Source: an uncultured Bacilli bacterium
GTDB lineage: Bacteria > Bacillota_I > Bacilli_A > RF39 > UBA660
Assembly (NCBI GenBank): GCA_910589375.1
Contig: CAJUTK010000002.1
Span: 323,188 to 387,187 of the forward strand
Direction: 5' to 3'
Length of the DNA stretch: 64,000 nt
The translations under genes and the position numbers were made by a program. Shown here one piece after another: positions 5,889 to 34,065 of this stretch (position 1 is the stretch's first letter; the number at the start of each line of letters is the position of its first letter). The notes under the pieces were generated by a model. It saw only the letters and a list, made by a program, of their open reading frames with translations, did no database searches and was not told the DNA's origin.

Positions 5889-5889
5889 T

Positions 5890-6432
5890 ATGAAGAAAAT
5901 TGTAGCAATTGTAGGCATGTGTGGAAGCGGTAAATCTATCGCTTCTGATTTATTAGAGAGCATGGGTTGGAAGAAAGTTTATTTTGGTGGCGTTACAATG
6001 GAAAAATTAAAAGAGGCTAACTTAGAAGTAACTCCAGAAAATGAAAAGATGATGAGGGAAGGACTACGTAGAGATTTAGGAATGGGAGCTTATGCTAAGA
6101 TTTTACTTCCTCGTATTTTAGAATATGCAGAAGAAGAAAATACAGTATTAGACGGTTTGTATTCTTGGGATGAATTAAAAATACTACAAGAAGAATTAAA
6201 GGGTAAGCTAAAAGTTATCGCTATTGTAGCAGACAGAGATTTACGTTATGAAAGATTATCACAACGTGCTATTAGACCCTTTACTCCTGAACAGGCTGAA
6301 GCAAGAGATATAGCAGAAATAGAAAATTCTGCTAAAGGCGGACCTATTGCGATGGCTGATTATTATATTGATAATAATCATGATTTAGAAAGTTATAAAG
6401 AGAGACTTCTTTCCATTATAGAAAGCATATAG
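5890..6432 (+). CDS. P-loop nucleotide/nucleoside kinase family protein (dephospho-CoA kinase-like / AAA)
   Basis: Walker A motif GMCGSGKS at the N-terminus; the preferred start MKKIVAIVG at 5890 follows RBS GAGGTGGAGG (the track ORF starts at 5872). Confidence 0.5.
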   Translation: MKKIVAIVGMCGSGKSIASDLLESMGWKKVYFGGVTMEKLKEANLEVTPENEKMMREGLRRDLGMGAYAKILLPRILEYAEEENTVLDGLYSWDELKILQEELKGKLKVIAIVADRDLRYERLSQRAIRPFTPEQAEARDIAEIENSAKGGPIAMADYYIDNNHDLESYKERLLSIIESI

Positions 6433-8190: not shown

Positions 8191-8198
8191 GAGAGTTT

Positions 8199-17195: not shown

Positions 17196-18875
17196 ATGGA
17201 AGAAACAGTAAAGAAGAAAAAAAGTAAAAAAGGTATCCTATTATTTTTCGTTTTAATAATACTTGTTGGAGGCATTGCTGGCGTTTTTTTAATGAAGAAT
17301 CAAAAGGAGAAGCCAAATAATCCTTCTAATAGCAATGAAGAGCCTAGTAATAGTAATAAAAACGAAATTAAGAGTGATAAGATATCTGTTGTAGTTGAGG
17401 ATGTAAATCTTATTAGACAGTATGGAAATTATTTTGAAGTGGAGAAAGAAGGCGAGTATTCTTTAGTAGATTCTAAAGGAACTACGATACTAGAGAATCC
17501 CCTTTATTTATCTCATGCGCTTTCCGATGGAAAAGTAGTTTATAAAGGAAAACCTCTAGTAGTATTTGGAACATTTGAGAAATATAAAGTATATTATAGT
17601 TCTGATGCCCCAGAATTAGGGTATGTTGTCATTTTTAATGATGTGTTAGATTATCAGAGCAATAAGGTTCAAGATTTCTATATTGGAAATGATATTGTGA
17701 TTACATTCTATTGGAATCAAAAGACAGATGAAAATCTTATTGTAAAATATAATCTTAAGACAGGCGCTGTATTATCAGAAAACTTTGTAGATGGCTCTTT
17801 AGATTTATTTTTTTGGAATGATAAAAATTATTTATCAGTAGGTCACGAGAATATTATTGATTTAAACACCTTAGAAAAAGTTTTTCAAAAAGAATATACC
17901 TTAGGAGAAATGGCATTTGCAGATAGTACTAAGATTATTAGCTATCATAATAAGTATTTAACCGCCAAATTAAACGGTAAATACGGTATAATAGATGCCT
18001 CTGAAAAAGTAATAATTCCTTTTAATTATTTGGGATTAGAACAAACTAAGAACAATGTAGTTATTGCTAGAACAAAAGATGGATTAGGACTTATAGATTA
18101 TCAAAATCAGAAAGTATTAGATTTTGCTTATGATAAGATAGAAGTCTATAATGACTATATTGTAACAATTGATCATAATGGTATCTTAAAAGTCTTAAAT
18201 AGTCGTTATGAACCACTATTTACAGGAACTCATAAACTTCTTTTGACTCGTGAGAATGGCTCTAATACTTCTCAAAATATTAGAGAAAAATGGAATGTGT
18301 TAGCGTACTACAATATGCTATCTACAAATGAATCTACCTCTTATTTTGCTATTTTAGATATAGCAAGTGGAAAATCTAAAGAACTTTTAGATTACTCTTC
18401 TTATGAGAAAGTAAATAGAAGCCCTAGTGGATATGGATATGTAGTATTTATGTCTGATGATAATTTCAGCGTATATGATGGTATTGTAGAGGTGTCAAAA
18501 GTGAATGTTAGTGAATATGGATTTACATCTGTAAATAGTTTCTATTATGTTGGTAGTGATTATATCGTTTTTAATACGAAGAAAAAAGACGATACAGAAA
18601 TTAAGCAATATTTTATAAACATGAAAAAGAATATTATAGAATTACCAGAAGAGGTAACAGTAAAACCAGATGAAATACTAACTTATGATGAATTGTTTGA
18701 TAATGGATATTTCTTAAAATACGAAAATGGTAGAATTAATATTTATGATGCTAATAACAACTTGTTATGCAGTATTATCGGAAAAGTAATAGAACCTATG
18801 AATATTACTGATAATACATACTACCTTATTCAAAATGAAGATAAGGTAACAATCATTAGAATAAATGAAAAATAG
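17196..18875 (+). CDS. membrane-anchored hypothetical protein; weak similarity to WG-type repeats (e.g. GKYGIIDASEKVIIPFNY)
   Basis: 559 aa; Lys-rich N-terminus followed by a TM helix; terminator after the stop. Confidence 0.45.
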   Translation: MEETVKKKKSKKGILLFFVLIILVGGIAGVFLMKNQKEKPNNPSNSNEEPSNSNKNEIKSDKISVVVEDVNLIRQYGNYFEVEKEGEYSLVDSKGTTILENPLYLSHALSDGKVVYKGKPLVVFGTFEKYKVYYSSDAPELGYVVIFNDVLDYQSNKVQDFYIGNDIVITFYWNQKTDENLIVKYNLKTGAVLSENFVDGSLDLFFWNDKNYLSVGHENIIDLNTLEKVFQKEYTLGEMAFADSTKIISYHNKYLTAKLNGKYGIIDASEKVIIPFNYLGLEQTKNNVVIARTKDGLGLIDYQNQKVLDFAYDKIEVYNDYIVTIDHNGILKVLNSRYEPLFTGTHKLLLTRENGSNTSQNIREKWNVLAYYNMLSTNESTSYFAILDIASGKSKELLDYSSYEKVNRSPSGYGYVVFMSDDNFSVYDGIVEVSKVNVSEYGFTSVNSFYYVGSDYIVFNTKKKDDTEIKQYFINMKKNIIELPEEVTVKPDEILTYDELFDNGYFLKYENGRINIYDANNNLLCSIIGKVIEPMNITDNTYYLIQNEDKVTIIRINEK

Positions 18876-20985: not shown

Positions 20986-21834
20986 ATGAACATAACCTTG
21001 AATTCAGTGGGGAACTCTCCAAAAACTTTTCATTTTCTAGACAATAGGACTGAAAATTCAAGTTTCTATAGTAAATTTTCTCATAGCTACAGTATGCAGA
21101 AAAACTATTTTTATTTAGAAAGAGCATTAGAAATTCCTTTTGGGGATTCTATTGTAGAGGGAAATTTTACTGTTTACAATATCAATATTTTAGAAGATGA
21201 TTTTATGAGTGCCTTTAAATTAGGCATGCATAATAGATGGAACTCTAAATTGAGAGAATCCTTTGATCCTGCTATTAATCCTTCTTTCTTTGAATCTTTA
21301 ATGACCCAGGAAGATTTAGAAAAAATAGAGTCTACTCTATACGCCGTCTTCAAACAATATGGTGAATTAGGATTAGAACTTGTTAGAACATTTAATTTAG
21401 CGCATGCTATTTGTGATTCTTGTCATTATATTGCTATTGATGATAAAGAGGATAAATATGATTTAGAAAGTTCAAATGGGAAAAAGATATTATACATAGA
21501 TGCAGATGCATTTGATCCTATTAGTCGCACGTTACAGGCATTAAGCTGTGATGATTTTGCTTATCATCCTAATGAGAATGTAAAAAGTGCGTTATTTGCT
21601 ATGCCATATTTATTATATAGAGGAGAGAATATGGTAAGTGAGCATGAGGTAAGAATGCTATTAAGAGAGATAGAGTATTCTATGAAGCATCCTGTAAAGC
21701 AAGAATTAGATAGAGATACTTACCATGAGGCATTAGGGATTGCAAGAAGCTTATTTTTAAAATATAATGAGGACTTAATTCCTAAAAAGGAAGCTCCTAA
21801 ACAATATAAAAAAGAGGAACCAAAAGATTCCTAA
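20986..21834 (+). CDS. hypothetical protein
   Basis: 282-aa ORF with RBS GAGGAGG. Confidence 0.45.
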   Translation: MNITLNSVGNSPKTFHFLDNRTENSSFYSKFSHSYSMQKNYFYLERALEIPFGDSIVEGNFTVYNINILEDDFMSAFKLGMHNRWNSKLRESFDPAINPSFFESLMTQEDLEKIESTLYAVFKQYGELGLELVRTFNLAHAICDSCHYIAIDDKEDKYDLESSNGKKILYIDADAFDPISRTLQALSCDDFAYHPNENVKSALFAMPYLLYRGENMVSEHEVRMLLREIEYSMKHPVKQELDRDTYHEALGIARSLFLKYNEDLIPKKEAPKQYKKEEPKDS

Positions 21835-21893: not shown

Positions 21894-21922
21894 TTGACAA
21901 ATACTCTCATTTGCACTATAAT
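21894..21922 (+). promoter_or_regulatory. consensus sigma-A promoter (TTGACA-17-TATAAT) driving the T-box leader
   Basis: TTGACA at 21894-21899, 17-nt spacer, TATAAT at 21917-21922. Confidence 0.8.
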
Positions 21923-21929
21923 GAATTCA

Positions 21930-22180
21930 TAAGCGTTTTGACGTGGGAGAAGTAAAAATAAAAACGAGTTTAAGCGAGTTAGGTATGGTGAGAGCTAACA
22001 ATGACGTTTATTTTGAATAACACCCACTAGTTGTTGAACTGAAACAATAGTAAGTTTAATCGGAAGTAATCCGTTACCACATTACACAACTTTAATAGAA
22101 GTTGATGAAGTGGCCAAGTGTATTGGCAATTTGGGTGGCACCGCGGATTAGATTCGTCCCATAATAGGACGAAATAGTGT
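21930..22180 (+). promoter_or_regulatory. T-box riboswitch leader with a tRNA-Asn specifier (AAC at 22019-22021 followed by A); T-box sequence at 22128-22146; terminator hairpin at 22151-22175
   Basis: AATTTGGGTGGCACCGCGG matches the T-box consensus AATTAGGGTGGTACCGCGG at 17/19 positions; the variable bulge base in UGGC is complementary to the discriminator G of the downstream tRNA-Asn; the terminator (GATTCGTCC...GGACGAA) shares its 5' arm with the antiterminator 3' strand; Stem I GUGGG...CCCAC carries an AAUAACA loop. Confidence 0.8.
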
Positions 22181-22184
22181 ATTT

Positions 22185-22260
22185 GCTCAATTAGCTCAGT
22201 TGGTAGAGCATCCGGCTGTTAACCGGCAGGTCGTAGGTCCGAGTCCTACATTGAGCGCCA
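22185..22260 (+). tRNA. tRNA-Asn (anticodon GUU), CCA encoded
   Basis: manual cloverleaf: acceptor GCTCAAT/ATTGAGC, D-arm AGCTCAGTTGGTAGAGC, anticodon loop CTGTTAA, T-arm GTAGGTCCGAGTCCTAC, discriminator G, CCA. Confidence 0.9.
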
Positions 22261-22267
22261 TTTTGTT

Positions 22268-22343
22268 GCCTGATTAGCTCAGTTGGTAGAGCATCCGGCT
22301 GTTAACCGGCAGGTCGTAGGTCCGAGTCCTACATCAGGCGCCA
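22268..22343 (+). tRNA. tRNA-Asn (anticodon GUU), second tandem copy, CCA encoded
   Basis: identical to the first copy except for the acceptor stem (GCCTGAT/ATCAGGC). Confidence 0.9.
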
Positions 22344-22357
22344 TTAGAATATAAAAT

Positions 22358-22390
22358 AAGTCCTATGTTTTTAGGACTTATTTTTATTTA
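22358..22390 (+). terminator. intrinsic terminator-like hairpin between the tRNA-Asn genes and gatC (possibly leaky, or a processing site)
   Basis: AAGTCCTA-tgttttt-TAGGACTT followed by ATTTTTATTT. Confidence 0.6.
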
Positions 22391-22404
22391 TATAAGGAGG
22401 AGCT

Positions 22405-22710
22405 ATGGAAAGAAAATTTACAAAAAAAATGGTAGACGATTATGCAGATAAATTACTAATTGGTCTAACAGAAGAAGAAAACAAGATGGTATTAGAGGAA
22501 TTTGATATTATTGATGCCCAAATCGATATTATTAATTCTATACCTGATATTAGTGAAGTAACACCTATGACCCACTGTCTAGATGACTTTGTCTATGAGT
22601 TAAGAGAAGATGAGGACGATGAAGAAGGTTCTGTTCCAATCGATGACTTACTTTCTAACTGTGATGACTATGTAGGTGATGAAATTAGAGTACCAAAGGT
22701 GGTGGGATAA
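22405..22710 (+). CDS. gatC: aspartyl/glutamyl-tRNA(Asn/Gln) amidotransferase subunit C
   Basis: 101 aa, GatC-like; RBS AAGGAGGAG. Confidence 0.85.
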   Translation: MERKFTKKMVDDYADKLLIGLTEEENKMVLEEFDIIDAQIDIINSIPDISEVTPMTHCLDDFVYELREDEDDEEGSVPIDDLLSNCDDYVGDEIRVPKVVG

Positions 22711-24167
22711 TGAAATACATGGATAAAAGTATTAAAGAAATTCATGAAGTACTAAAAAATGGTGAAGTAAAATCAAAAGAATTAATTGAAGAATCATTAG
22801 AGAAATCAAAAGAAGTACAAGAGAAGTGTAATGCCTTTGTAACGATTTTAGAGGATGCTAAAGAAGTACCTGTTACAGATGATTTATTATCAGGAATTCC
22901 TTATGGAATTAAAGATAACTATAGTACCAAAGGAATATTAAGTACAGGTTCTAGTAATACCTTAAAAGACTATGTACCATTTTTTACCGCAACTGCAATA
23001 GAAAATCTAGAGAGTCATGGAGCAGTTGCTACCAATAAAACCGTATTAGATGAATTTGGTATGGGAGGAACTGGAACGACTGGTCATACAGGAATTGTAA
23101 AAAATCCATGGGATACTACTCGTATGTGTGCGGGATCTAGTGCTGGATCTGCCTGTGCGGTTGCTGCTGGAGTATATCCATATGCAACAGGATCTGATAC
23201 GGGAGACTCTATTCGTAAACCAGCAGCTTATTGTGGAATTGTCGGATATAAACCAACTTATGGAATGATATCTAGATATGGATTATTCCCATTTGCTTCT
23301 AGCCTAGATCACTGTGGAGTCCTTGCTCGTAGTGTAGAAGACGCTAGTATTGTCGTAGATGCTATGAAAGGTATCGATAAGAATGATATGACAAGTTGGG
23401 ATTCTAAAGATATTCATCTATATGATTCTTTAACAGGTGATGTTAAGGGTAAAAAAGTATGTACCATTAAAGAAATTAGTAATCCATCTATGTATCCAAA
23501 TGCTTCTTCAGAATTAAAAGAGCATTTAGAAAACTTCCAGAAAGCTTTAGAGCATTTTAAAGAATTAGGAGTAGAAGTAGAAGAAGTATCTGTAGATTCT
23601 AAATTATTAAATGCTTTAGCTTCTGTTTATGTTGTTATCTCTTGTGCGGAAGCAACTTCTAACATGTCTAATTTAACAGGAATTGTTTTTGGACCAAGAG
23701 CAAATGCGGATAACTATATTGATATGATGAAGAAATATCGTACAGAGGGATTTTCACCATTAATCAAAAGAAGATTTGTAATCGGTTCTTACGTGTTACA
23801 AGCAGAGAATAAAGAAAGATATTTCCACAATGCTCAAAGAGTAAGAAGATTACTAGTAGATCGTTGGAAAGAAATATTCAAAAGTTTTGATGCTGTTATC
23901 TTACCAGTAGGTAGTGGCCCTGCAAAACATTTAGATAATTCAGAAGATATTCTAGATGAAAATACAGGAGTATTAGAAGAACACTTACAGATTGGTAACT
24001 TTGGAGGATTCCCATCTATTACGATTCCAGATGGATTTGTAAGTGGACTTCCAGTAGGCCTTAATATTACAGGTAATTGTTATGATGATGTAAACGTATT
24101 AAACTTAGCCTATGCATTAGAATCTAGCATGCCTTATAAAAATCAAGTAGCAAAGGAGGAAAAGTAA
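22710..24167 (+). CDS. gatA: aspartyl/glutamyl-tRNA amidotransferase subunit A
   Basis: amidase signature (GGSSAGSACAVAAG...DTGDSIRKPAAYCG); overlaps gatC by 1 nt. Confidence 0.9.
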   Translation: MKYMDKSIKEIHEVLKNGEVKSKELIEESLEKSKEVQEKCNAFVTILEDAKEVPVTDDLLSGIPYGIKDNYSTKGILSTGSSNTLKDYVPFFTATAIENLESHGAVATNKTVLDEFGMGGTGTTGHTGIVKNPWDTTRMCAGSSAGSACAVAAGVYPYATGSDTGDSIRKPAAYCGIVGYKPTYGMISRYGLFPFASSLDHCGVLARSVEDASIVVDAMKGIDKNDMTSWDSKDIHLYDSLTGDVKGKKVCTIKEISNPSMYPNASSELKEHLENFQKALEHFKELGVEVEEVSVDSKLLNALASVYVVISCAEATSNMSNLTGIVFGPRANADNYIDMMKKYRTEGFSPLIKRRFVIGSYVLQAENKERYFHNAQRVRRLLVDRWKEIFKSFDAVILPVGSGPAKHLDNSEDILDENTGVLEEHLQIGNFGGFPSITIPDGFVSGLPVGLNITGNCYDDVNVLNLAYALESSMPYKNQVAKEEK

Positions 24168-25624
24168 TGGATAATTATCAAGTATTAATCGGTTTAGAGA
24201 TGCACTGTGAAATTAGCGAGACAAAAACTAAAGTATTTTCAAGCGCTAAAAACGGATACAGTGATACACCAAACTCTTATATTAGACCACTCGATATGGC
24301 TTTTCCAGGAACTTTGCCGGTTGTTAATAAAGAAGCAGTCGCACTTGCTTTAAAAGCAAGTATGATACTACACTGTTCACAACCAGAATATCTTTATTTT
24401 GAAAGAAAGAACTATTACTATCCAGATTTACCAAAAGGATATCAGATTACACAGGAGACAAAACCTGCACCAGTAGGTAGTTTTGGATATTTAGATTTCG
24501 ATTGTAAAGGAGAAACAAAAAGAGTACGTATCAATAACATTCACCTAGAAGAAGATGCTGCATCATCGGATCATTATCCAACATTTTCAACAATTGATTA
24601 TAACCGTGCTGGAGTGCCACTTCTAGAACTTGTTACAGAACCAGATATGCATTCAGCAGAAGAAGCAGTAGCCTTCCTAGAGACGATGAGGTCTATCTAC
24701 CAGTATGCAGGAATTAGTGAAGCAGATAGTAGAAAAGGACAGATTCGTTGTGATGTAAACGTATCTATTATGGAAAAAGATAAAGATCCATCAGACCCTA
24801 AAAACTGGGGAACCAAAGTAGAGATGAAAAACGTAAACTCTTTTGGTGGTGTAAGAGACGCTATCAACTATGAAATTGATAGACAAATTGCTTTAAAAGA
24901 AGATGGGACCTATGATGAGATGGAACAACAAACCCGTAGATGGGACGAAGATACTTTCTCAACCATCTATATGAGAAGTAAAGCCGATGCAATTGACTAC
25001 AAATACTTTGTAGAACCAAATATTCCAAAATTTAAAATCAGCGAATCTTGGCTAGAGAGCATTCGTGCTAGTATTCCAGAGCTTGCTTCTGAAAGAAAAG
25101 AAAAGTACATGAATGAATATAACTTATCAGAATATGATTCTACTATTCTAGTAAAAGAAAAAGCAATCTCTGACTTCTATGAAGAAGTAATTTCTCTAGG
25201 GGGAGAAGCAAAAGGTGCTGCAAATTGGTTAACTAGTGTTATTTTAGGATATCTAAATAAAGAAGAATTAGAAATGAAAGATTTATATCTTACTCCTAAA
25301 ATGTTAGTAGACCTAATGAATATGGTTCGAGATGGTAAGATTTCTTCAAAACAGAGTAAGCAAGTACTTTCTAAAGTATTAGAAGATAAAAAAGAACCTA
25401 GTGTTATTGTTGAAGAATTAGGAATGAAACAAATAGGAGACGATAAGACTATTCGTGATATCGTTGTTAAAGTATTAGATGAACACCCAGATTTAATAGA
25501 AGATCATAGAAAAGGAAAGAACACATTTGATTTCTTTGTAGGACAAGTAATGAAAGCCACTCGTGGACAAGCTAATCCAAGTTTAACGGCTGATATTATT
25601 AGAGAAGAAATTGATAAGAGATAG
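24167..25624 (+). CDS. gatB: aspartyl/glutamyl-tRNA amidotransferase subunit B
   Basis: YQVLIGLEMHCEI start region and the C-terminal GatB/YqeY-like domain. Confidence 0.9.
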   Translation: MDNYQVLIGLEMHCEISETKTKVFSSAKNGYSDTPNSYIRPLDMAFPGTLPVVNKEAVALALKASMILHCSQPEYLYFERKNYYYPDLPKGYQITQETKPAPVGSFGYLDFDCKGETKRVRINNIHLEEDAASSDHYPTFSTIDYNRAGVPLLELVTEPDMHSAEEAVAFLETMRSIYQYAGISEADSRKGQIRCDVNVSIMEKDKDPSDPKNWGTKVEMKNVNSFGGVRDAINYEIDRQIALKEDGTYDEMEQQTRRWDEDTFSTIYMRSKADAIDYKYFVEPNIPKFKISESWLESIRASIPELASERKEKYMNEYNLSEYDSTILVKEKAISDFYEEVISLGGEAKGAANWLTSVILGYLNKEELEMKDLYLTPKMLVDLMNMVRDGKISSKQSKQVLSKVLEDKKEPSVIVEELGMKQIGDDKTIRDIVVKVLDEHPDLIEDHRKGKNTFDFFVGQVMKATRGQANPSLTADIIREEIDKR

Positions 25625-25632
25625 GTGATAAT

Positions 25633-27012
25633 ATGATATTAGATATTAAAGAAATAGAAAATAAAAAAGACGACTATTTAAATAAAGAAGTAACTGTTCA
25701 AGGTTGGATTAGAAATCATCGTAAACAAAAAGAATTTGGTTTTATTGATTTTAGTGATGGAACTAGTTTCAATCATTTACAAGTGGTTTATGATAATAAA
25801 TTATCTAACTTTGATAGTATTACGAAACTACATATTGGAAGTGCGATTACGGTAACTGGAACACTCGTTCCTTCTCCAAAAGAAGGACAGGCTATGGAAC
25901 TTCAAGTAAGTAGTTTAGTACTAGAGGGAGACTGTCCAGAAGACTACCCAATACAACCAAAAAGACATACTCGTGAATTCTTAAGAGAATGTGCTTATTT
26001 AAGACCTAGAACCAACTTATTTCAAGCTGTATTTAGAGTAAGAAGTGTAGCAGCTCATGCTATTCATACTTATTTTCAAGAAAGAGGATACGTTTATTTC
26101 CATGCACCTATTATTACAGCAAGTGACTGTGAAGGGGCAGGAGAGATGTTTCAAGTAACAACTCTAGATTTAGAGAAGGTAGCCTCATCTGGAAAAGTAG
26201 ACTACGATAAAGACTTCTTTGGGAAACAAGCGGCATTAACCGTATCAGGACAATTACAAGCAGAAACGTTTGCGTTAGCGTACAAAAAAACGTATACCTT
26301 TGGACCAACTTTTAGAGCTGAAAATTCTAATACGAAAACACATGCTTCAGAATTTTGGATGATTGAGCCAGAAGTAGCGTTCTGTGATTTAAATGGGGAT
26401 ATGGATATCATGGAAGAGATGCTTAAATTTGTTGTTCAATATGTATTAGATCATTGTCCAGACGAAATTAAATTCTTTGATGAATTTGTAGAAAAGGGAT
26501 TAAAGGAAAAATTAGAGAAGTTAGTTGCTTCAGAATTTACTAGAATTGACCATGAAGAAGTTATCTCTATCTTAAAGAAAGCAGATGTGAAATGGGAATT
26601 TGAACCAGAGTATGGGGAAGATATTGCCAAAGAACATGAAAAATATATTACTGAATACTTTCATGGACCAGTATTTATTAAGAACTGGCCAAAAGATATT
26701 AAAGCCTTCTATATGAAACAAAACCCAGATGGCAAAACCGTTGCAGCAGTTGACCTTGAAGTTCCTGGTGCTGGAGAGTTAATGGGTGGTTCTGAGAGGG
26801 AAGCAGATTATGATAAGTTAGTAACTCGTATGAAAGAGATGAACATGTCTAGCGAGGGATTAGAATGGTACTTAAACTTACGTAAATACGGTGGTTGCGT
26901 ACATTCTGGTTTCGGTATGGGATTTGAAAGATTACTAATTTATTTAACAGGTGTTGAAAACATAAGAGACGTTATCCCTTATGCTAGAACACCAAGATCT
27001 TGCGAATTTTAA
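25633..27012 (+). CDS. asnS: asparagine--tRNA ligase
   Basis: 459 aa, class IIb; motif 2 FRAENSNTKTHASEFWMIEPE; motif 3 GGCVHSGFGMGFERL. Confidence 0.85.
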   Translation: MILDIKEIENKKDDYLNKEVTVQGWIRNHRKQKEFGFIDFSDGTSFNHLQVVYDNKLSNFDSITKLHIGSAITVTGTLVPSPKEGQAMELQVSSLVLEGDCPEDYPIQPKRHTREFLRECAYLRPRTNLFQAVFRVRSVAAHAIHTYFQERGYVYFHAPIITASDCEGAGEMFQVTTLDLEKVASSGKVDYDKDFFGKQAALTVSGQLQAETFALAYKKTYTFGPTFRAENSNTKTHASEFWMIEPEVAFCDLNGDMDIMEEMLKFVVQYVLDHCPDEIKFFDEFVEKGLKEKLEKLVASEFTRIDHEEVISILKKADVKWEFEPEYGEDIAKEHEKYITEYFHGPVFIKNWPKDIKAFYMKQNPDGKTVAAVDLEVPGAGELMGGSEREADYDKLVTRMKEMNMSSEGLEWYLNLRKYGGCVHSGFGMGFERLLIYLTGVENIRDVIPYARTPRSCEF

Positions 27013-27040
27013 ACTGAAAAAAATAAGGGGAGTGAAAGGG

Positions 27041-28783
27041 ATGAAAACAAAATATCGTACTATCTATTGTGGCAAAGTAAGTGAAGAAGAACTTGGAAAA
27101 GAAGTTCGTATTGCAGGATGGGTAGAAAATATAAGAGACCATGGAGGAGTAATATTTGTAGATATCAGAGATGAAGAAGGAACTGTTCAGGCTGTAAGTA
27201 ATGATGATTCCATATTCAAACATTTAACGCGTGAATCATCTGTTACGATTACTGGTACAGTTCGGAAAAGAAGCGAAGATGACTACAACCCAAGACTTAA
27301 AACAGGTACTGTTGAAATATTAGTATCTACTTTAGAAGTATTAGGAACTTCTTTAAATGAACTTCCATTTGAAGTAATGAGTTCTACTAGTGTATCAGAA
27401 GATATTCGTCTAAAGTATCGTTATTTAGATTTACGAAATGAAAAAGTTCATAGTAATATCAAATTACGTAGTGAACTACTAAAATTTCTTAGAAATAAAA
27501 TGGATACATTAGGGTTTACAGAAGTGCAAACTCCAATTATTACCGCTTCTAGTCCAGAAGGTGCTCGTGATTTTATTATTCCATCTCGTAAATTTAAAGG
27601 AAAATTCTATGCTTTACCACAAGCTCCACAAGTATTTAAAGAATTACTGATGGTAGGTGGTTTTGATAAGTATTATCAGATTGCTCCTTGTTTTAGAGAT
27701 GAGGATTGCCGCAGTGATCGGACATTAGAATTTTATCAATTAGATTTTGAAATGGCTTTTGTTAGTGAAGAAGATGTCTATGAGATAGGAGAAGAAGTCT
27801 TCTATGAAACTTTTAAACATTTTAGCGATAGAGAGATTAGTCCAAGACCATTTAGAAGAATTTCTTATCGAGATGCGATGCTAAAATATGGAACAGATAA
27901 GCCAGATTTACGAAATCCATTAGAGATTCAAGATATCAGTGAGTTATTTGTTAGTAGTGAATTTAAACCATTTAGAGGAAGTATCGTTCGTTCTATTACG
28001 GTAGATGGTATTGCTAGTTATCCAAATAGTTGGTTTAATGAAGTAGTAGATTATGCTTCTTCAATCGGTATGCCAGGTATTGGTTATTTAAGTGTAATGG
28101 AGGATAATACTTTTAAAGGACCTATTGATAAATTCTTGAAAGAGGAAGATAGAAAATTATTAATGGAAAAAGCTAATTTAAAAGTAGGTAGTGTCGTATT
28201 CTTTATTGCCGATAGAAAAGAATTAGTGGCTGCTAAAGAGGCAGGTATGATTCGTGCCTATTTAGGAAATAAATTAGATTTGATTGATAAGAATAAATAT
28301 GAATTCTGCATTATTAATAATTTCCCAATGTTTGAATACGATGAACAAACTCATAAATATGAATTCTGCCATAATCCATTTAGTATGCCTCATGGTGGGT
28401 TAGAAGGATTAGATAATAAGGATATCGATTCGATATTAGCTTATCAATATGACTTTGTATGTAATGGAAATGAGATGGCTAGTGGTGCCGTTCGTAATCA
28501 TGATATCAAGTGTTTAGAGAAAGCATTCTCTATCGTAGGCTATGATAAATCTGTATTAGAAACAAGATTTGCCTCTTTATATAATGCCTTCCAATTTGGA
28601 GCGCCTCCTCATGCAGGAATGGCTCCAGGAATAGATAGAATGTTAATGCTTTTAAAAGATGAACCAAACTTAAGAGAAGTGCAAGCATTTCCTATGAGTG
28701 TTAGTGGACAAGATATGATGATGAACTCACCTAGTGAAGTAACAGAAGAACAATTAAGAGAAGTTCATATTAAGATAAGATAA
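27041..28783 (+). CDS. aspS: aspartate--tRNA ligase, bacterial type (discriminating or non-discriminating cannot be told from sequence)
   Basis: QLDFEMAF and GAPPHAGMAPGIDRMLML motifs and the GAD insertion domain; preferred start MKTKYRT follows RBS AAGGGGAGTGAAAGGG (the track ORF starts at 26981). Confidence 0.85.
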   Translation: MKTKYRTIYCGKVSEEELGKEVRIAGWVENIRDHGGVIFVDIRDEEGTVQAVSNDDSIFKHLTRESSVTITGTVRKRSEDDYNPRLKTGTVEILVSTLEVLGTSLNELPFEVMSSTSVSEDIRLKYRYLDLRNEKVHSNIKLRSELLKFLRNKMDTLGFTEVQTPIITASSPEGARDFIIPSRKFKGKFYALPQAPQVFKELLMVGGFDKYYQIAPCFRDEDCRSDRTLEFYQLDFEMAFVSEEDVYEIGEEVFYETFKHFSDREISPRPFRRISYRDAMLKYGTDKPDLRNPLEIQDISELFVSSEFKPFRGSIVRSITVDGIASYPNSWFNEVVDYASSIGMPGIGYLSVMEDNTFKGPIDKFLKEEDRKLLMEKANLKVGSVVFFIADRKELVAAKEAGMIRAYLGNKLDLIDKNKYEFCIINNFPMFEYDEQTHKYEFCHNPFSMPHGGLEGLDNKDIDSILAYQYDFVCNGNEMASGAVRNHDIKCLEKAFSIVGYDKSVLETRFASLYNAFQFGAPPHAGMAPGIDRMLMLLKDEPNLREVQAFPMSVSGQDMMMNSPSEVTEEQLREVHIKIR

Positions 28784-28790
28784 AAAATAA

Positions 28791-28830
28791 AGGTCTATTT
28801 ACATTTATTTGTAAATAGACTTTTTATTTA
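28791..28830 (+). terminator. rho-independent terminator ending the gat-asnS-aspS operon
   Basis: GTCTATTTACA-tttatt-TGTAAATAGAC followed by a T-rich run. Confidence 0.8.
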
Positions 28831-28873
28831 CTCTAAAATCCTATATAATGAAAATAAGATAGGTAGTGGTAGC

Positions 28874-30112
28874 ATGAGTATAAAAGAATTTGCTGATTTA
28901 TTTGATAATCCTTGTTCATTAGAAGACTTATTGTCACACAAAGAGGAATTATTAGAATGCGATTTTATAGATGAGGATATTTTAAAAGGGTTATTGGATG
29001 CTATACAAAAAGAGAACAGTCCTTTTGTTGATAGAAGAGTCGCTATTAAAGCTATTATTACTTCTATTTGTACAACAGGAGAATTTGGCTATTTTACTAG
29101 GAGTGTATTTAGAGAATTACTAGAAAAAGATGGTTGTTCAAAAGAAGCTATTACCAAAATCTTAATGCAGGCAAATGAGCAAGCAGGCATGGTAAGACAA
29201 AGAAACAGAGAAAAAAGATTAGCAGAAAAGAAAAAGAAAGAAGACGCTTTAAAAAAATTAGAAGCAGGTATTGATATGTCAAAAACGGCAGTCAGTTATG
29301 ATACTGCTAGATTTTTAATAAGAAATGGAATGACTTATGAAGAATTGGAAAAAAGTATTTCTGTTTCTATTAGTAGTCAAGAAGATATAGATCCAATTTT
29401 ATATAAGTATCGAATAGGAACTGACGGGGAAAAAGAAAACGTAAGTATAGCAGATGTAGTAGGATATGATTATAGTTATATGCGATGTGGTAATGATTTA
29501 TTAAAAGCATTTCCGAATTTCTTTGATTCTACTAAAAGGGATGGTTATCATACGAGATCTCTTTCTATGTTAGATTTAACAACAGAAAATGGAGTAAGGG
29601 CATTAACTCCTAGTTTCAAGGAAGAACCCATGAAACTTGCTGATGCTCCTGGTGGTAGATATACAATTAATGGAAATGGAATGCACAGATATTCTGTTTT
29701 ACGAAGTCTTTATTTAATTGAGATGGCAAAGTCAAAAGGGAATAAGGAACAGGAACAAGCCATTCGCGAGAAATATACAGTTCCTGCTTTAGTTTCAAAA
29801 ATAGATTATGTAAAAACGTATTCTAATTTTGTTTTAACTACGTTGAAGATGGCATACTGGGTAGGTAATGAAAGAGATGAACAGAATAATTTAACAGGGA
29901 GAGTAAAAGTTGAAACTACTAATGGTGAAAACTTATTTTTAACGAATGAGGAATTATTAGAGTATGTTAGAAATGTAATCAGTACTCAAATGGATAGTCC
30001 TTCTATGCAGTGGTTATTAGACTTTGATAATCCATCATTCCAACAATTTTTATCTTTAGTAGATCCTAAAAAAGTATATGGTAAGGGGGAAGAAAATGCT
30101 AAAACTGTATAA
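28874..30112 (+). CDS. hypothetical protein with a candidate ParB/sulfiredoxin-like nuclease motif
   Basis: GGRYTINGNGMHRYSVLRSL fits the Y-x-I-DG-x-HR-x-x-A pattern of the ParB/Srx fold; 412 aa. Confidence 0.4.
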   Translation: MSIKEFADLFDNPCSLEDLLSHKEELLECDFIDEDILKGLLDAIQKENSPFVDRRVAIKAIITSICTTGEFGYFTRSVFRELLEKDGCSKEAITKILMQANEQAGMVRQRNREKRLAEKKKKEDALKKLEAGIDMSKTAVSYDTARFLIRNGMTYEELEKSISVSISSQEDIDPILYKYRIGTDGEKENVSIADVVGYDYSYMRCGNDLLKAFPNFFDSTKRDGYHTRSLSMLDLTTENGVRALTPSFKEEPMKLADAPGGRYTINGNGMHRYSVLRSLYLIEMAKSKGNKEQEQAIREKYTVPALVSKIDYVKTYSNFVLTTLKMAYWVGNERDEQNNLTGRVKVETTNGENLFLTNEELLEYVRNVISTQMDSPSMQWLLDFDNPSFQQFLSLVDPKKVYGKGEENAKTV

Positions 30113-30516: not shown

Positions 30517-31506
30517 ATGGAATGTTATGTAAAAATAGATAGAACGTATGATTCTTTAACACCTTTTCATGGATATTGGGGGATTTATAAAAATGTGAGA
30601 ACAGGGCAAAAAGTATCAGTAGAAGAGGGAGAACAGGAAGATTTATTTATAGGAAATAATCTTATCATCACATGGGAAGAATATCAAAGAAGAATGGAAT
30701 ATGAGAAATATGGTATTCATACCGATCAAGTAGAGAAGTATGGTTTAATTGGAAGAAATTATGATAAAATTTTAAAATCCTATGGAAGAAGACTTGAAGA
30801 TGTATTACCTAAAACAGAATTGTTATATGAAAAAGATAAAGGATATTTTGATATTCACTTTTTGGAAATTTTAATGTTAATTTGTCAGCATCGTCAGATA
30901 CCTATTTTTCATACATATGAAAATGAAGGATATCAATATAAAAGAAGTACTTCTTATGATGTTATTGATGAATTGTATAAATTTTATACAGAAGTAAGCC
31001 ATCGATTGTTATTAGCAAGACATTATAAGAATAATGGAATCCAAAGTGAAATAACGAGAAAGAAAGTAGAGGAGTTAATTTATCACTTACTCGCCAATCA
31101 TACAGATACAGCTAGTACTTGTAATAATCTATTGGATATAGATGAGTTTAGAGCTTTATTAGAAGATGAGGAAATAGGTGCTTTAATAAATAAAGTTGTC
31201 ATTCCATGGACTATTAGAATACCATCACCATGGGATCGTGAATCTTTAGTAAATGGATTAGTGAAGCTATCTTATAAAGGAATTTCACCAACAGAATGTG
31301 CTATTATTAATTACGGGGAATTAAATAGTTATTTAAGGCAAAATTCTGGCATTATTCTCCCAGCTCTTTATAGTACTACTATAATGAATATAAGTCGCGA
31401 TTTCCCTGTTTTACTTCCTTTTATATCTCAACAAGAAGGGAAAGATAGTACTATTACTTTTGAAAGTAAAAATAAAGTTTATAGTATTGGTAGTAAAATA
31501 TTTTAA
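30517..31506 (+). CDS. hypothetical protein
   Basis: 329-aa ORF with RBS AAAGGAA. Confidence 0.45.
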   Translation: MECYVKIDRTYDSLTPFHGYWGIYKNVRTGQKVSVEEGEQEDLFIGNNLIITWEEYQRRMEYEKYGIHTDQVEKYGLIGRNYDKILKSYGRRLEDVLPKTELLYEKDKGYFDIHFLEILMLICQHRQIPIFHTYENEGYQYKRSTSYDVIDELYKFYTEVSHRLLLARHYKNNGIQSEITRKKVEELIYHLLANHTDTASTCNNLLDIDEFRALLEDEEIGALINKVVIPWTIRIPSPWDRESLVNGLVKLSYKGISPTECAIINYGELNSYLRQNSGIILPALYSTTIMNISRDFPVLLPFISQQEGKDSTITFESKNKVYSIGSKIF

Positions 31507-32237: not shown

Positions 32238-32268
32238 GAAAAGAGACTTTTCAAAGTCTCTTTTTTTA
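32238..32268. terminator. bidirectional terminator between convergent mtnN and glmS
   Basis: GAGACTTT-tc-AAAGTCTC flanked by an A-run and a T-run. Confidence 0.7.
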
Positions 32269-34065
32269 TTCAACAGTTACAGATTTTGCTAAATTTCTAG
32301 GCTTATCAATATCGCAGCCTCTTAGCTTAGCAATTTCATAGGCAATAAGTTGTAATGGAATAATGGTAAGAAGGGCTTGCCATAATGGATGGACTGTTGG
32401 TATTAGGATAAGCTCTGCTACATCAGAAATTACCTCTGTACTAATAGCAATAATAGAAGCGCCTCTTGCTGAAGTTTCTTTTAAATTACTAATTGTTTTT
32501 TCTTTCATAGTAGAGTCTGTAATAATACCAATAACTGGAGTATTTTTTTCAACTAGAGAAATAGTACCATGTTTTAGTTCTCCTGCAGGATAAGAAACAC
32601 TGTTAATATAAGAAATTTCCTTTAACTTTAAAGCACCTTCCATACTAATAGCATAGTCTAATTTTCTTCCCAAATAGAAGATGTCTTCTCTTTGATAGAT
32701 ATTAGTTGCGATTTTTCTATATTGATCATTTAAAATTAGCTTTTCTATCATATTAGGAAGCTCTACTAATTGTCCATTAATGGTAGAAAGTTCTTGGACT
32801 TCTATTTTATTGTGAATAATAGCTAGTTTCAAAGTGAGTAAACTTAGTAGGGCAAGCTGTGCAGAATAGGCTTTTGTTGTAGCAACTGCAATTTCACATC
32901 CGGCTTTAATATAAAGAACATTATCTGCTTCTCTTGCGATACTAGAGCCAATAACATTTACGATTGCTAAAGTGTCAATATGGTCTTTTTTAGCTTTTCT
33001 TAGGGAAGCTAGTGTATCAGCAGTTTCTCCTGATTGGGAGATAACTATAACGAGTGTAGATTCATCATAAAATACTTTTTTATAACGATATTCACTAGCA
33101 ATTTCACAAGTTACAGGTAATTCTACGATTTCTTCTATCAATGTCTTGGTAACTAATCCAGTGTGGTAGGCAGAACCACAGGCAACAATATGAATGTTAT
33201 TATATTTGTCTAGGTTTGGTAAATTTTTATCTAGTGATTCCTTTGTTCCATCATAATAATATTGTATAGTATCCATAATTACTTTTGGTTGTTCGTGAAT
33301 TTCTTTTAGCATGTAGTGTTCATATCCTTCTTTGCGTGAAGATTCAACGTTTCCTTCAAAGATAAGTTTTTCTTTCTCAAAATATCCTTTCTTTGGATGA
33401 TAGAAAGATAAGCTATTTTCTTTTAATATGGCTATATCAAAATCATCTAATAAATAGTATTCATTTGTGTATGATAAGATGGCTGGAACATCAGAGGCAA
33501 TAAACTTATTTTCACCTTTCTCAGCTACAATTAAAGGACTTTTATTTCTCATAGCATAAAGAGTGTTTAAATCATCGCTACATAGGATTCCTAATGCATA
33601 GCTACCTTTTAATTTTTGTTCAGCGATAGATAATGTTTTTAAAATATCTAGTTCCTCTTGATAGATAGCATCTAGCATAGCGCAAGCTACTTCTGTATCT
33701 GTATCTGACTTAAAAATGTATCCTTTTTCTTCTAACTCTTTTTTTAATTCTGCATAGTTCTCAATGATCCCATTATGGACAATTGTGAACTTTCCACATT
33801 GATGAGGGTGAGAGTTTTTTTCGTTAGGTTCTCCGTGGGTAGCCCATCTAGTATGACCAATTCCCATAAAAATAGGTAGGTCAAAATCTAGAGTCTTTTT
33901 TAAGGTCGCTATTCTTCCTTCCTTTTTTTTGATAGTAATTTGATTTTTTTCAACATAAGCAATTCCTGCAGAATCATATCCTCTATATTCTAATGCTTCT
34001 AATCCATCAATAATGGTTTTAATTGCATTTGGTTTTGTACCAATGTATCCTACGATACCACACAT
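32266..34065 (-). CDS. glmS: glutamine--fructose-6-phosphate aminotransferase (isomerising)
   Basis: N-terminal MCGIVGYIG nucleophile, two SIS domains, C-terminal ...KSVTVE. Confidence 0.95.
   Translation of the reverse strand: MCGIVGYIGTKPNAIKTIIDGLEALEYRGYDSAGIAYVEKNQITIKKKEGRIATLKKTLDFDLPIFMGIGHTRWATHGEPNEKNSHPHQCGKFTIVHNGIIENYAELKKELEEKGYIFKSDTDTEVACAMLDAIYQEELDILKTLSIAEQKLKGSYALGILCSDDLNTLYAMRNKSPLIVAEKGENKFIASDVPAILSYTNEYYLLDDFDIAILKENSLSFYHPKKGYFEKEKLIFEGNVESSRKEGYEHYMLKEIHEQPKVIMDTIQYYYDGTKESLDKNLPNLDKYNNIHIVACGSAYHTGLVTKTLIEEIVELPVTCEIASEYRYKKVFYDESTLVIVISQSGETADTLASLRKAKKDHIDTLAIVNVIGSSIAREADNVLYIKAGCEIAVATTKAYSAQLALLSLLTLKLAIIHNKIEVQELSTINGQLVELPNMIEKLILNDQYRKIATNIYQREDIFYLGRKLDYAISMEGALKLKEISYINSVSYPAGELKHGTISLVEKNTPVIGIITDSTMKEKTISNLKETSARGASIIAISTEVISDVAELILIPTVHPLWQALLTIIPLQLIAYEIAKLRGCDIDKPRNLAKSVTVE

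Follow-up and report, generated by a model that had tools for sequence, protein, structure and literature searches.

The window analysed here, a stretch of 64,000 nucleotides from a contig of an uncultured Bacilli bacterium (CAJUTK010000002.1, positions 323,188 to 387,187 of the forward strand), carries the genes gatC, gatA, gatB, asnS and aspS in a row that spans positions 22405 to 28783, preceded by a promoter, a T-box leader and two tRNA-Asn genes (Table 1). The gaps between the five genes are -1, -1, +8 and +28 nt, essentially the packing of 0-28 nt given in the first-pass annotation, whose five gene identities were borne out by Pfam and NCBIfam. In Pfam, the three GatCAB subunits matched the GatC, amidase, GatB_N and YqeY-like domains. 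GatC scored 26.8 bits with the Pfam model (cutoff of 23) and 35 bits with NCBIfam, under the cutoff of 47; GatA scored 438 bits with TIGR00132, under the cutoff of 481, and is therefore divergent; GatB, with 565 bits, lies above its NCBIfam cutoff. AsnRS matched the equivalog model NF003037 with 632 bits (cutoff of 414), and the class II motif that had been quoted for it, FRAENSNTKTHASEFWMIEPE, begins at residue 227. AspRS scored 721 bits as the bacterial type and contains the GAD domain. The true start of aspS is the ATG at 27041 with the ribosome-binding site AAGGGGAG upstream, in place of 26981 in the list of open reading frames, and a protein of 580 aa is what most public gene calls predict. 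The strong terminator claimed for the end of the cluster is present as a 15-bp stem (28789-28824) with a U tail (dG -17.7, z -7.7).

Table 1. Features of the tRNA-Asn/gatCAB-asnS-aspS locus (positions in the window)
Feature	Position	Strand	Evidence
Promoter TTGACA-17-TATAAT, sigma-70-type	21894-21922	+	12/12 matches
T-box leader, RF00230	21929-22164	+	Full-length Rfam match, 122.7 bits (gathering score 93)
Helix H1 (TTCGTCC/GGACGAA)	22153-22173	+	Fold; comparison with relatives
Putative long-range helix, leader half: AUAGGAC (22164-22170) and UGUAUUU (22178-22184)	22164-22184	+	RNAduplex, covariation
tRNA-Asn(GTT) copy 1, G1-C72, G73, CCA encoded	22185-22260	+	ARAGORN; Rfam, 69 bits
tRNA-Asn(GTT) copy 2, G1-C72	22268-22343	+	ARAGORN; Rfam
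Putative long-range helix, trailer half: GAAUAUA (22347-22353) and GUCCUAU (22360-22366)	22347-22366	+	RNAduplex, covariation
Hairpin H2 (13 bp, 22353-22384) and U-rich tail	22353-22394	+	Terminator scan; fold
gatC	22405-22710	+	ORF; Pfam/NCBIfam
gatA (amidase subunit)	22710-24167	+	ORF; Pfam/NCBIfam
gatB	24167-25624	+	Pfam/NCBIfam
asnS (asparaginyl-tRNA synthetase)	25633-27012	+	NCBIfam equivalog NF003037
aspS, bacterial type with GAD domain	27041-28783	+	Pfam/NCBIfam; RBS
Intrinsic terminator closing the unit	28789-28831	+	Terminator scan; fold

T-box leader, tRNA-Asn genes and extent of the unit

The genes had been described as lying behind an Asn T-box. The Asn specificity was upheld: the specifier AAC (22019-22021) is followed by A in the context GAAU-AAC-A (22015-22022), the T-box bulge UGGC (22136-22139) complements the G73-C-C-A end of both tRNA-Asn copies, and with the search pattern applied, 38 of 39 related T-boxes also showed an AAC specifier. 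The direct adjacency was not, because two tRNA-Asn genes and a hairpin, H2, lie in between. The two tRNA copies differ only by compensated acceptor-stem changes. H2 is terminator-like (dG -17.4, z -3.65), and its tail runs to the gatC ribosome-binding site AAGGAGG (22394-22400), which begins about 10 nt past the hairpin.

The order of a T-box, one to five tRNA-Asn genes and then gatCAB was found on 26 different contigs from uncultured Bacilli of the gut, and a hairpin with a U-run stands at the place of H2 in all complete loci of the two classes, A and B, that are distinguished below. T-boxes have been described as regulating synthetase, biosynthesis and transporter genes; in the literature, no report was found in which tRNA genes separate a T-box from the genes under its control, or in which the terminator of a T-box is moved to the far side of tRNA genes.

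Very probably, the leader, the tRNA genes and gatCAB-asnS-aspS form one co-transcribed unit headed by the T-box. In nearly all related tRNA-containing loci, a promoter with 11-12 of 12 matches lies about 185-218 nt 5' of the T-box motif (10 of 12 in L016). A division into two independent units, in which the T-box and tRNAs end at H2 and the five enzyme genes have their own unrecognised promoter, would fit the apparent strength of H2, which equals that of the final terminator of the operon, but it has a very small chance of being correct on four grounds. First, about 20 nt separate the end of H2 from the gatC start codon, and the ribosome-binding site lies within them. Second, a promoter scan of the + strand between 21922 and 22405 found no promoter-like site. 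Third, related loci without intervening tRNA genes, referred to as direct loci, have the same T-box immediately 5' of gatC. Fourth, a second T-box located 3' of the tRNAs in two loci (L022 and L141) lacks a separate promoter (the best candidate site has 7-8 of 12 matches), so the tRNAs and gatCAB must share one transcript there.

[quoted passage not shown]

The earlier view that the type of AspRS could not be decided from the sequence was too pessimistic. First, His34 of the window AspRS (codon 27140-27142, in ENIRDHGG) occupies the position equivalent to H31 of the Pseudomonas aeruginosa enzyme, a His that Bernard and colleagues reportedly described in 2006 as a determinant of non-discriminating AspRS. 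PDB chains labelled as Asp/Asn ligase (4wj3 and 5w25) have RDHGG at this site, and the Thermus thermophilus chain labelled as Asp ligase has RDLGG. Second, the family of gatCAB-linked AspRSs, to which the window enzyme belongs, has His at this position in 120 of 120 members and in 78 of 81 loci, and hisS-linked paralogues have Leu in 119 of 120. For example, the gene order in the related genome L028 is hisS, aspS1 (Leu), asnS, aspS2 (His) and gatCAB. The window enzyme consists of an OB-fold anticodon domain, a class II core and the GAD insertion; in the PDB it matched 4wj3, the P. aeruginosa Asp/Asn ligase, best (441 bits), although the T. thermophilus Asp ligase scored 430. It is also 56-61% identical to gatCAB-linked AspRSs of Clostridia, which share ENIRDHGG and several of whose aspS genes have a T-box 5' of the gene. 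At the second P. aeruginosa determinant (RPEGARNP), the window enzyme lacks the Gly and has Asp-Asp instead (RSEDDYNP). We consider the window AspRS likely to be the non-discriminating paralogue, which would aspartylate tRNA-Asn.

The first-pass annotation also held that both routes to Asn-tRNA are co-encoded. AsnRS would load free Asn directly, AspRS would put Asp on tRNA-Asn and GatCAB would turn this Asp into Asn on the tRNA, with both routes and their tRNA substrate expressed together as uncharged tRNA-Asn accumulates. The genes for both are present, as claimed; the indirect route is one that we infer, because the tRNA-Asn here has G1-C72, which under the published rules makes a poor substrate for ordinary bacterial GatCAB. 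Among the tRNA-Asn genes of the lineage that were scored, G1-C72 was found in 120 of 122, and the remaining two are truncated by the end of a contig. The bacterial GatCAB enzymes characterised so far have a preference for U1-A72 (PMC2811023, PMC1635274): in Staphylococcus aureus the 3-10 turn decides between U1-A72 and G1-C72 (PMC2811023), and in Neisseria meningitidis G1-C72 cut amidation about 100-fold (PMC1635274). U1-A72 is a bioinformatic criterion for bacterial tRNA-dependent Asn synthesis.

At the position of S. aureus Met184 in this turn, the window GatB has Ser188 (codon 24728-24730, in ADSRKG). The turn keeps its bacterial length (K183-M184-E-E186 in S. aureus) and its hydrophobic anchor is replaced; an insertion of about five residues follows NVSIM. 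Of the 150 nearest cluster representatives, 141 could be scored, and 135 of these have Met, Leu or Ile at the position; it is Ser or Thr in all copies from the lineage, with 27 contigs having both a G1-C72 tRNA-Asn and a Ser/Thr GatB. Since the tRNA-Asn here is G1-C72, the linked GatB, with Ser for Met, probably has a relaxed or altered reading of the first base pair, and we lean towards the view that GatCAB acts on this tRNA-Asn. If the module runs on a G1-C72 tRNA-Asn, the U1-A72 rule would be broken and the lineage would offer a test, set up by nature, of what the 3-10 turn of GatB does. Ser or Thr at this position may be a trait of the clade and not an adaptation, as L085 has a Thr-type GatB beside a Leu-type AspRS with no T-box.

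The same enzymes could instead be housekeeping ones, with GatCAB serving Gln-tRNA-Gln (U1-A72), AspRS being ordinary, Asn-tRNA-Asn coming from AsnRS alone and the clustering with an Asn T-box being a legacy of gene transfer. This would agree with the poor use of G1-C72 by characterised bacterial enzymes, with the U1-A72 kept by the tRNA-Gln on contig L109 and with the presence of asnS in the same unit as gatCAB. Furthermore, Mollicutes and Erysipelothrix, which are also without U1-A72, are listed with AsnRS and asnA (asnS and asnA for Mycoplasma and Erysipelothrix), and by analogy the GatCAB here might not act on tRNA-Asn. We nevertheless consider a housekeeping role improbable. An AAC T-box lies directly 5' of gatC or aspS in dozens of species, even where asnS is not nearby (L012, L015, L018 and L025), the linkage of aspS with gatCAB is kept across rearrangements, and the AspRS family with its His signature is separate from the hisS-linked paralogue. 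In addition, L056 has a second gatC'-gatA' set, and it would be odd for the sole route to Gln-tRNA to stand under Asn control.

Helix H1, a proposed leader/trailer helix and a possible relay

Helix H1 (about -10 kcal/mol) shares a strand, X, with the antiterminator, so the two compete in the predicted fold. In the window, the tail of H1 is AATAGTGTATTT / AAUAGUGUAUUU with no U-run, and the terminator scan of the window did not flag H1 as an intrinsic terminator. The H1 tails of class B, to which the window belongs, have T-runs of at most 3 (13 loci), and those of class A and the direct loci have at least 5. Several class B tails are A-rich (e.g., L099 and L106, with ACAAAAAUGCC) and a few are moderately T-rich (e.g., L016, L095 and L097). 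In class A and the loci with two T-boxes (L018, L020, L092, L103, L137, L140, L022 and L141), the tRNAs are preceded by a full terminator whose T-run is about 7 long. The 5' strand of H2 resembles a diverged copy of strand X, a likeness kept only in class B.

The leader and the trailer can pair through two 7-bp segments and an internal loop, in a predicted helix that encloses the tRNA array and abuts the 5' end of the first tRNA. For the window, RNAduplex gave -13.4 kcal/mol and a z of -4.1 for the free duplex with no loop penalty; the corresponding values are -10.7 to -14.8 kcal/mol and z of -2.9 to -4.3 in all 13 class B loci, compared to a z of about 0 in all three class A loci. Cognate leader/trailer pairs had a mean of -12.9 kcal/mol versus -9.0 for non-cognate pairs, a result that 0 of 20000 permutations matched. 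When the nascent transcript is folded with strand X masked and before Y2 has been synthesised, the minimum-energy structure contains the pairing.

A relay of the T-box decision across the tRNA genes to H2 can be proposed on this basis. H1, having lost its U-run, could not terminate, and the tRNAs would therefore be made constitutively; the working terminator would be H2, 3' of the tRNAs. When no uncharged tRNA-Asn is held, H1 and H2 would both form and transcription would halt after the tRNAs. Uncharged tRNA-Asn would hold the antiterminator and free the 3' strand of H1, which together with the leader would reach across the folded tRNAs and pair with both the trailer and the H2 5' strand. This pairing would block H2 and polymerase would proceed into gatC. 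If real, such a relay would represent a new riboswitch wiring and an example from nature of a ligand gene that lies within its own sensor.

We put this relay forward tentatively and with some doubt. H2 (-17.4) is more stable than the blocking helix (-13.4 kcal/mol), so the relay needs a kinetic advantage, and RNase P could cut off the leader before H2 is made. Part of the leader/trailer complementarity could be a legacy of duplication, given the likeness of the H2 5' strand to strand X, and not a product of selection. The relay is not general, since class A keeps its full terminator 5' of the tRNAs, and in the literature no published example was found of a helix chain spanning at least 160 nt of folded tRNA genes.

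Two other explanations of the leader have to be weighed. Under ordinary T-box control, H1 would terminate with NusA or NusG despite its poor U tail, uncharged tRNA-Asn would switch on the tRNA-Asn genes as well, in a positive loop, and H2 would fix the tRNA-to-mRNA ratio, either as a terminator that leaks or by stabilising the 3' end of the tRNA or the 5' end of the mRNA. T-box-gated tRNA genes do occur in the lineage, in class A and the two-T-box loci, factor-dependent terminators with weak U-tracts exist in Bacillus subtilis, and the moderately T-rich class B tails mentioned above would suit such control; the A-rich ones would not. It also leaves unexplained why leader/trailer complementarity and covariation are limited to the class without a U-run, and why the H2 5' strand resembles the T-box strand in class B only. 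Thus, we regard ordinary control as unlikely. The leader/trailer helix could alternatively be a processing stalk with no role in termination, cut by a double-strand-specific nuclease to excise the tRNA array and split the leader from the gatCAB mRNA. Its position around the entire array suits this function, and flanking stems are a standard means of releasing stable RNAs (e.g., rRNAs) from long precursors. However, the helix is short, class A loci manage tRNA processing in its absence, and a stalk explains neither the loss of the H1 U-run nor why one half coincides precisely with the strand alternating with the antiterminator, which makes it quite unlikely.

The best explanation in its entirety, in which a self-contained unit supplying Asn-tRNA(Asn) to a low-GC gut bacterium, its enzymes, their control and tRNA recognition are combined, comes close to an even prospect in our judgement without reaching it. 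Its most specific form is doubtful: a T-box expression platform split by the genes of its own ligand, with the decision relayed over one to five folded tRNA-Asn genes, the tRNA constitutive and the enzymes on demand, plus an acquired Asn-transamidation module whose GatB was re-tuned (Met to Ser) to the G1-C72 tRNA-Asn of the host, independent of U1-A72.

Comparison with known systems

The likeness to Clostridium acetobutylicum drawn in the first-pass annotation holds. As cited in PMC4206432 (ref 18, Saad et al. 2012 J Biol Chem), a tRNA-Asn-dependent T-box controls an aspS-gatCAB transamidation operon in that organism, a Firmicute that also has AsnRS; in both cases, an Asn-specifier T-box heads a unit with AspRS and GatCAB. 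Compared to the aspS-gatCAB order of the cited operon, the order in the window is gatCAB-asnS-aspS, with asnS inside the unit. Unlike C. acetobutylicum, the window lineage has its sensor separated from the regulated genes by one to five tRNA-Asn genes, and the U-run terminator of the window lies beyond them. Furthermore, the tRNA-Asn of the window has G1-C72, whereas that of C. acetobutylicum is listed with U1-A72, and the window GatB has Ser in place of Met/Leu. The locus is a variant of the T-box transamidation operon typified by C. acetobutylicum, with a predicted mechanism.

In Deinococcus radiodurans and T. thermophilus, AsnRS is found together with a second, non-discriminating AspRS and GatCAB, and the indirect route is at the same time a pathway of Asn synthesis (PMC2330236, PMC4206432). 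The window resembles these species in that direct and indirect routes would coexist and a dedicated second AspRS would feed GatCAB, but their tRNA-Asn has U1-A72, and the AspRS of the window is of the bacterial type with a GAD domain. Archaeal GatCAB accepts G1-C72 tRNA-Asn with a GatB whose 3-10 turn is shortened by 1-3 residues, whereas in the window GatB the turn is as long as in bacteria and has Ser for the anchoring Met.

In the thrU-tyrU-glyT-thrT-tufB operon of Escherichia coli, tRNA genes share a transcript with a protein gene for translation that lies downstream, and the tRNAs are excised from the precursor. That operon has no riboswitch, whereas the tRNA of the window is the ligand of the leader as well as the substrate of the enzymes. 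In the trp leader, mutually exclusive helices (1:2, 2:3 and 3:4) pass a sensing event to a distal terminator. Trp-type relays and tandem T-boxes share with the present proposal a chain of helices leading to a distal terminator, and two T-boxes follow one another in L022 and L141. Unlike the trp leader, the chain proposed for the window would cross at least 160 nt of folded tRNA genes.

Organization of the Asn locus

Five head-to-tail ORFs at 22405–28830 encode GatC, GatA, GatB, AsnRS and AspRS, as identified with NCBIfam and Pfam, and this five-gene finding is real. The close spacing claimed in the first-pass annotation was borne out: gatC/gatA and gatA/gatB each share a one-base overlap (TAATG), gatB and asnS are separated by 8 nt, and asnS and aspS by 28 nt, if aspS begins at the ATG at 27041 downstream of AAGGGGAG, a start shared by most public gene calls. 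The strong terminator said to close the unit was also found, and the first-pass interpretation of the locus was broadly right. AspRS is of the bacterial type with a GAD domain. GatC and GatA score under the NCBI equivalog cutoffs, so the GatCAB of the window is divergent.

Features of the Asn locus and ORFs in its surroundings
Feature	Position	Strand	Basis or description
Promoter TTGACA-17-TATAAT, perfect	21894–21922	+	Sequence scan
T-box, full length	21929–22164	+	122.7 bits
tRNA-Asn(GTT), two copies, CCA encoded	22185–22343; first begins 20 nt past T-box	+	tRNA prediction
H2, AU-rich 13-bp hairpin with U-rich tail	22353–22394	+	dG −17.4, z −3.65; flagged terminator-like
gatC ribosome-binding site	22394–22400	+	Sequence
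Unit-end terminator	3′ end of stretch 22405–28830	+	15-bp hairpin with U tail
AlaRS ORF	6442–8190		582 aa; catalytic core and SAD domain
ORF directly after AlaRS ORF	8199–8945		248 aa; no Pfam match
Conserved operon-flanking ORF	17196–18875		559 aa; no Pfam match
Conserved operon-flanking ORF	20986–21834		282 aa; no Pfam match
Conserved operon-flanking ORF	28874–30112		412 aa; no Pfam match
Conserved operon-flanking ORF	30517–31506		329 aa; no Pfam match
GATase/SIS protein	32266–34065		GlmS-like
ComEC/ComEA-like genes	34172–36794
T2SSF-like and T2SSE-like genes	40797–45147		On opposite strands, near the ComEC/ComEA-like genes

The T-box is Asn-specific because its specifier loop reads GAAU-AAC-A, and its bulge, UGGC, complements the G73-CCA acceptor end. 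A promoter scan of the + strand from 21922 to 22405 saw no promoter-like sites. The absence of such a site, and of space ahead of gatC, ruled out a promoter inside the unit for either the tRNAs or gatC; separate transcription units are unlikely, even with a terminator-like hairpin standing between the tRNAs and gatC.

The two tRNA-Asn copies differ only at four of the seven acceptor-stem pairs, with both strands changed (GCTCAAT/ATTGAGC vs GCCTGAT/ATCAGGC), and both variants recur together in other species, e.g., at locus L018. In public assemblies of the window species, the tandem repeat is interrupted: L001 carries a 100-N scaffold gap (6465–6564), and the L004 and L005 contigs start at the second tRNA-Asn. 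Two copies may be a lower bound for the window, and copy number among relatives ranges from 1 to 5.

Proteins identical to those of the window came from gut metagenome contigs and two NCBI MAGs (GCA_948521505.1 and GCA_948913175.1), and relatives are recorded as "uncultured Bacilli bacterium". The window, with a GC content of ~30%, also encodes ProRS, AlaRS, RpoD, DnaG, MutS, gyrase or topoisomerase IV, pilus or competence proteins, and SpoIIP. In the stretch 6442–8945, alaS may be split, or a frameshift may have cut off its C-terminal part. The T2SSF/T2SSE-like and ComEC/ComEA-like genes, with a SpoIIP homologue near 15.5 kb, hint that this small-genome gut lineage can form competence pili and sporulate.

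Junction classes and a proposed relay across the tRNAs

The junctions around the tRNAs fell into two classes, A and B, the window belonging to the second. The T-box bulge is UGGU in class A and UGGC in class B, except for the class B locus L016, which has UGGU. Past the antiterminator, class A has a long canonical terminator with a run of ~7 T ahead of the tRNAs, whereas class B has a short helix of 6–8 bp (H1) and a tail that is ordinary or even A-rich, its longest T-run being ≤3. After the tRNAs, the class A hairpin is unrelated in sequence to the T-box, whereas the class B hairpin (H2) is followed by 5–8 T and its 5′ strand (AAGTCCTAT) is similar to strand X of the T-box (TTCGTCCCAT), the 5′ strand of H1. 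The H2 U-runs were read from the sequences, as an automated U-tail measure for H2 proved unreliable, RNAfold pairing the run with A-rich flanks. One rival reading of the class B junction is a factor-dependent terminator at H1 with H2 being leaky; the relay set out below explains the loss of the U-run at H1 and both the placement and the sequence of H2.

In class B, the 3′ strand of H1 (Y1) and the tRNA-proximal leader are complementary to the trailer and the 5′ strand of H2 (X2). In the window, AUAGGAC (22164–22170) can pair with GUCCUAU (22360–22366), and UGUAUUU (22178–22184) with GAAUAUA (22347–22353). The duplex reached −10.7 to −14.8 kcal/mol with z-scores of −2.9 to −4.3 in each of the 13 class B loci, whereas z was ~0 in all three class A loci. 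Cognate leader/trailer pairs (−12.9 kcal/mol) were more stable than non-cognate ones (−9.0 kcal/mol), a difference matched by 0 of 20000 permutations, so leader and trailer co-vary. When X was masked, as with the antiterminator in place, and the transcript stopped short of Y2, the 3′ strand of H2, the minimum-energy fold of the window contained exactly this helix around the tRNAs. The helix could alternatively be a processing stalk; the relay would also account for the co-variation.

We infer from these sequences a relay that operates across the tRNAs through four mutually exclusive pairings: T-box strand with X (antiterminator), X with Y1 (H1), Y1 and leader with trailer and X2, and X2 with Y2 (H2, the terminator). 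Uncharged tRNA-Asn would favor the antiterminator and the Y1/leader:trailer/X2 helix, which would block H2 and let polymerase read into gatC. Without uncharged tRNA-Asn, H1 and H2 would form and transcription would stop past the tRNAs. Synthesis of the tRNAs from the consensus promoter would thus be constitutive, with induction restricted to the enzymes. The relay has several weaknesses. First, H2 has a greater thermodynamic stability than the helix that would block it. Second, some of the complementarity may descend from duplication of the T-box terminator, as illustrated by L016, whose H2 tail and ribosome-binding site are similar to the terminator tail of locus L011. Third, RNase P might detach the leader first. 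Fourth, class A loci operate differently.

Two other candidates were set aside. A short leader ORF after H1, running from a GTG/ATG into the TAG of the tRNA in the window and locus L099 and out of frame in locus L100, was judged by eye to be a coincidence. Direct pairing of the H2 5′ strand with the T-box bulge strand showed, also by eye, too poor a complementarity.

AspRS type, tRNA-Asn identity and GatB

The first-pass annotation held that the type of AspRS could not be decided from sequence. This stood for overall similarity, as the window enzyme scored 441 bits against the P. aeruginosa Asp/Asn ligase and 430 bits against the T. thermophilus Asp ligase among solved structures, which does not separate the types; it did not stand for a single determinant, His34, which does. 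His34 lies in ENIRDHGG; the P. aeruginosa and Mycobacterium chains that carry the Asp/Asn ligase label likewise have RDHGG, whereas T. thermophilus AspRS1 has RDLGG at the same site. In work by Bernard et al. of 2006, the equivalent His of the P. aeruginosa AspRS, H31, reportedly contributes to tRNA-Asn recognition. A second reported determinant, a Gly, is absent, the window enzyme having Asp-Asp there.

Both AspRS paralogues of the lineage lie close together in contig L028 (5031–14390), where the order is hisS, aspS1 (Leu type, KKRDLGG), asnS, aspS2 (His type, ENIRDHGG) and gatCAB, with no T-box detected in that stretch. All 120 homologues of the window AspRS have the His, and 119 of 120 homologues of L028 aspS1 have the Leu. 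Among AspRS of the fetched loci, 78 of 81 have the His; the Clostridial enzymes are among them, and most of those adjoin gatCAB. The window AspRS is therefore the gatCAB-linked and, to judge from its sequence, probably non-discriminating paralogue, and a hisS-linked housekeeping AspRS is predicted elsewhere in the genome. A search with L028 AspS1 matched a large Leu-type family, with no member linkable to the window genome.

G1-C72 and G73 are found in both tRNA-Asn of the window and in 120 of 122 lineage tRNA-Asn scored, the remaining two genes being cut at contig ends. Variation in the acceptor stems takes the form of compensated changes; the genes are therefore functional. In bacteria, the GatCAB identity element is U1-A72, and G1-C72 lowers amidation efficiency ~100-fold (PMC1635274). 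A 3-10 turn of GatB (K183-M184-E-E186 in S. aureus, anchored by Met184) discriminates U1-A72 from G1-C72; archaeal GatB is without this turn, and deleting it yields an enzyme that accepts G1-C72 substrates (PMC2811023). The window GatB retains the bacterial length, with Ser188 replacing Met184 (ADSRKG). This position is Ser or Thr in all aspS-linked GatB proteins of the Bacilli lineage and Met or Leu in those of Clostridia. It was scored in 141 of the 150 nearest 50%-identity cluster representatives, being Met in 119, Leu in 15, Ile in 1 and Ser in only 3, and these three share the SEA[DK]S motif of the lineage. Ser/Thr-type GatB and G1-C72 tRNA-Asn occur together on 27 contigs.

A coherent reading of these sequences is that tRNA-Asn had already drifted to G1-C72 in a host lineage, which may have acquired, or retained, an aspS2-gatCAB module; the GatB of this module would then have ceased to read the first base pair strictly. 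As a caveat, locus L085, where no T-box is present, pairs a GatB of the Thr type with an AspRS of the Leu type. In a survey table, U1-A72 is missing from the tRNA-Asn of Acholeplasma, Mycoplasma capricolum and Erysipelothrix, all three of which have asnS and asnA.

That GatCAB serves Asn is favored by the Asn T-box and by the conserved linkage to aspS, whereas the G1-C72 of tRNA-Asn speaks against it under the published rules; both could hold if GatB is altered, as the substitution suggests. A role in Gln is possible, and one lineage contig (L109) carries a tRNA-Gln with U1-A72. No glnS, gltX, hisS, asnA, asnB, second aspS or second gatCAB was present among the window ORFs checked, namely 20 of the larger ORFs by Pfam together with precomputed Pfam calls for 15.6–37 kb on L001. 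The mechanisms proposed at the locus are put forward as hypotheses.

Two further observations concern GatCAB. In locus L056 (13700–14400), asnS-aspS-gatCAB is directly followed by a second gatC, gatC′ (44% identical), and by the beginning of a gatA′ (61% identical), so at least one relative has two GatCAB sets in tandem, the contig ending before gatB′; a search for a second lineage GatB with the GatA′ fragment matched only truncated GatA fragments at contig ends. At 24770–24800 of the window (GatB ~203–213), a lineage-specific insertion of ~5 residues (MEKDKDPSDPKNWG vs LR-PYGQEKFG in S. aureus) directly follows the NVS motif of the cradle domain and is missing in loci L027 and L028.

Comparison with other Asn loci

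The five proteins, the tRNAs and the T-box core motif were mapped on 80 loci from genomes and 59 from metagenomes, with T-boxes confirmed by Rfam in a sample. By the pattern used, all T-boxes but one have the AAC specifier. In the Bacilli lineage, a T-box immediately 5′ of gatCAB-(asnS)-aspS is common, and 26 distinct loci have a T-box followed by 1–5 tandem tRNA-Asn genes. Several of these contigs stop inside or just past the tRNA array; in every locus long enough, gatCAB comes next, either directly or via a second T-box. The latter layout, in L022 and L141, consists of a T-box, tRNA-Asn (one and five copies, respectively), a second T-box and gatCAB-asnS-aspS, the second T-box beginning ~8 nt past the last tRNA and being promoterless (best match 7–8 of 12). 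Other species have a T-box, asnS, tRNA-Asn and tRNA-Glu, or tRNA-Asn immediately 5′ of the T-box. These recurring layouts indicate that, in this lineage, Asn-T-box units habitually include tRNA-Asn genes.

The first of these other layouts recurs in seven loci (L091, L096, L098, L119, L121, L134 and L136) with 1–3 tRNA-Asn, which trail the T-box-controlled asnS and do not precede gatCAB. In L015, a circular 1.2-Mb MAG, a Lys-Gly-Ile-Asn-Asn-Glu tRNA cluster (5630–6404) lies directly 5′ of a T-box-gatCAB-aspS unit, and asnS is absent within 10 kb of it.

No description of a T-box in front of tRNA genes was found in the searchable literature. In Clostridia, the order is aspS-gatCAB, with a T-box detected 5′ of aspS in about a dozen loci, and this layout is the arrangement of C. 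acetobutylicum, for which the survey table gives two gatCAB sets, three aspS, asnS, no glnS and U1-A72. The novel features of the present locus are the array of ligand tRNAs inside a T-box expression platform and the pairing of a transamidation module with G1-C72 tRNA-Asn.
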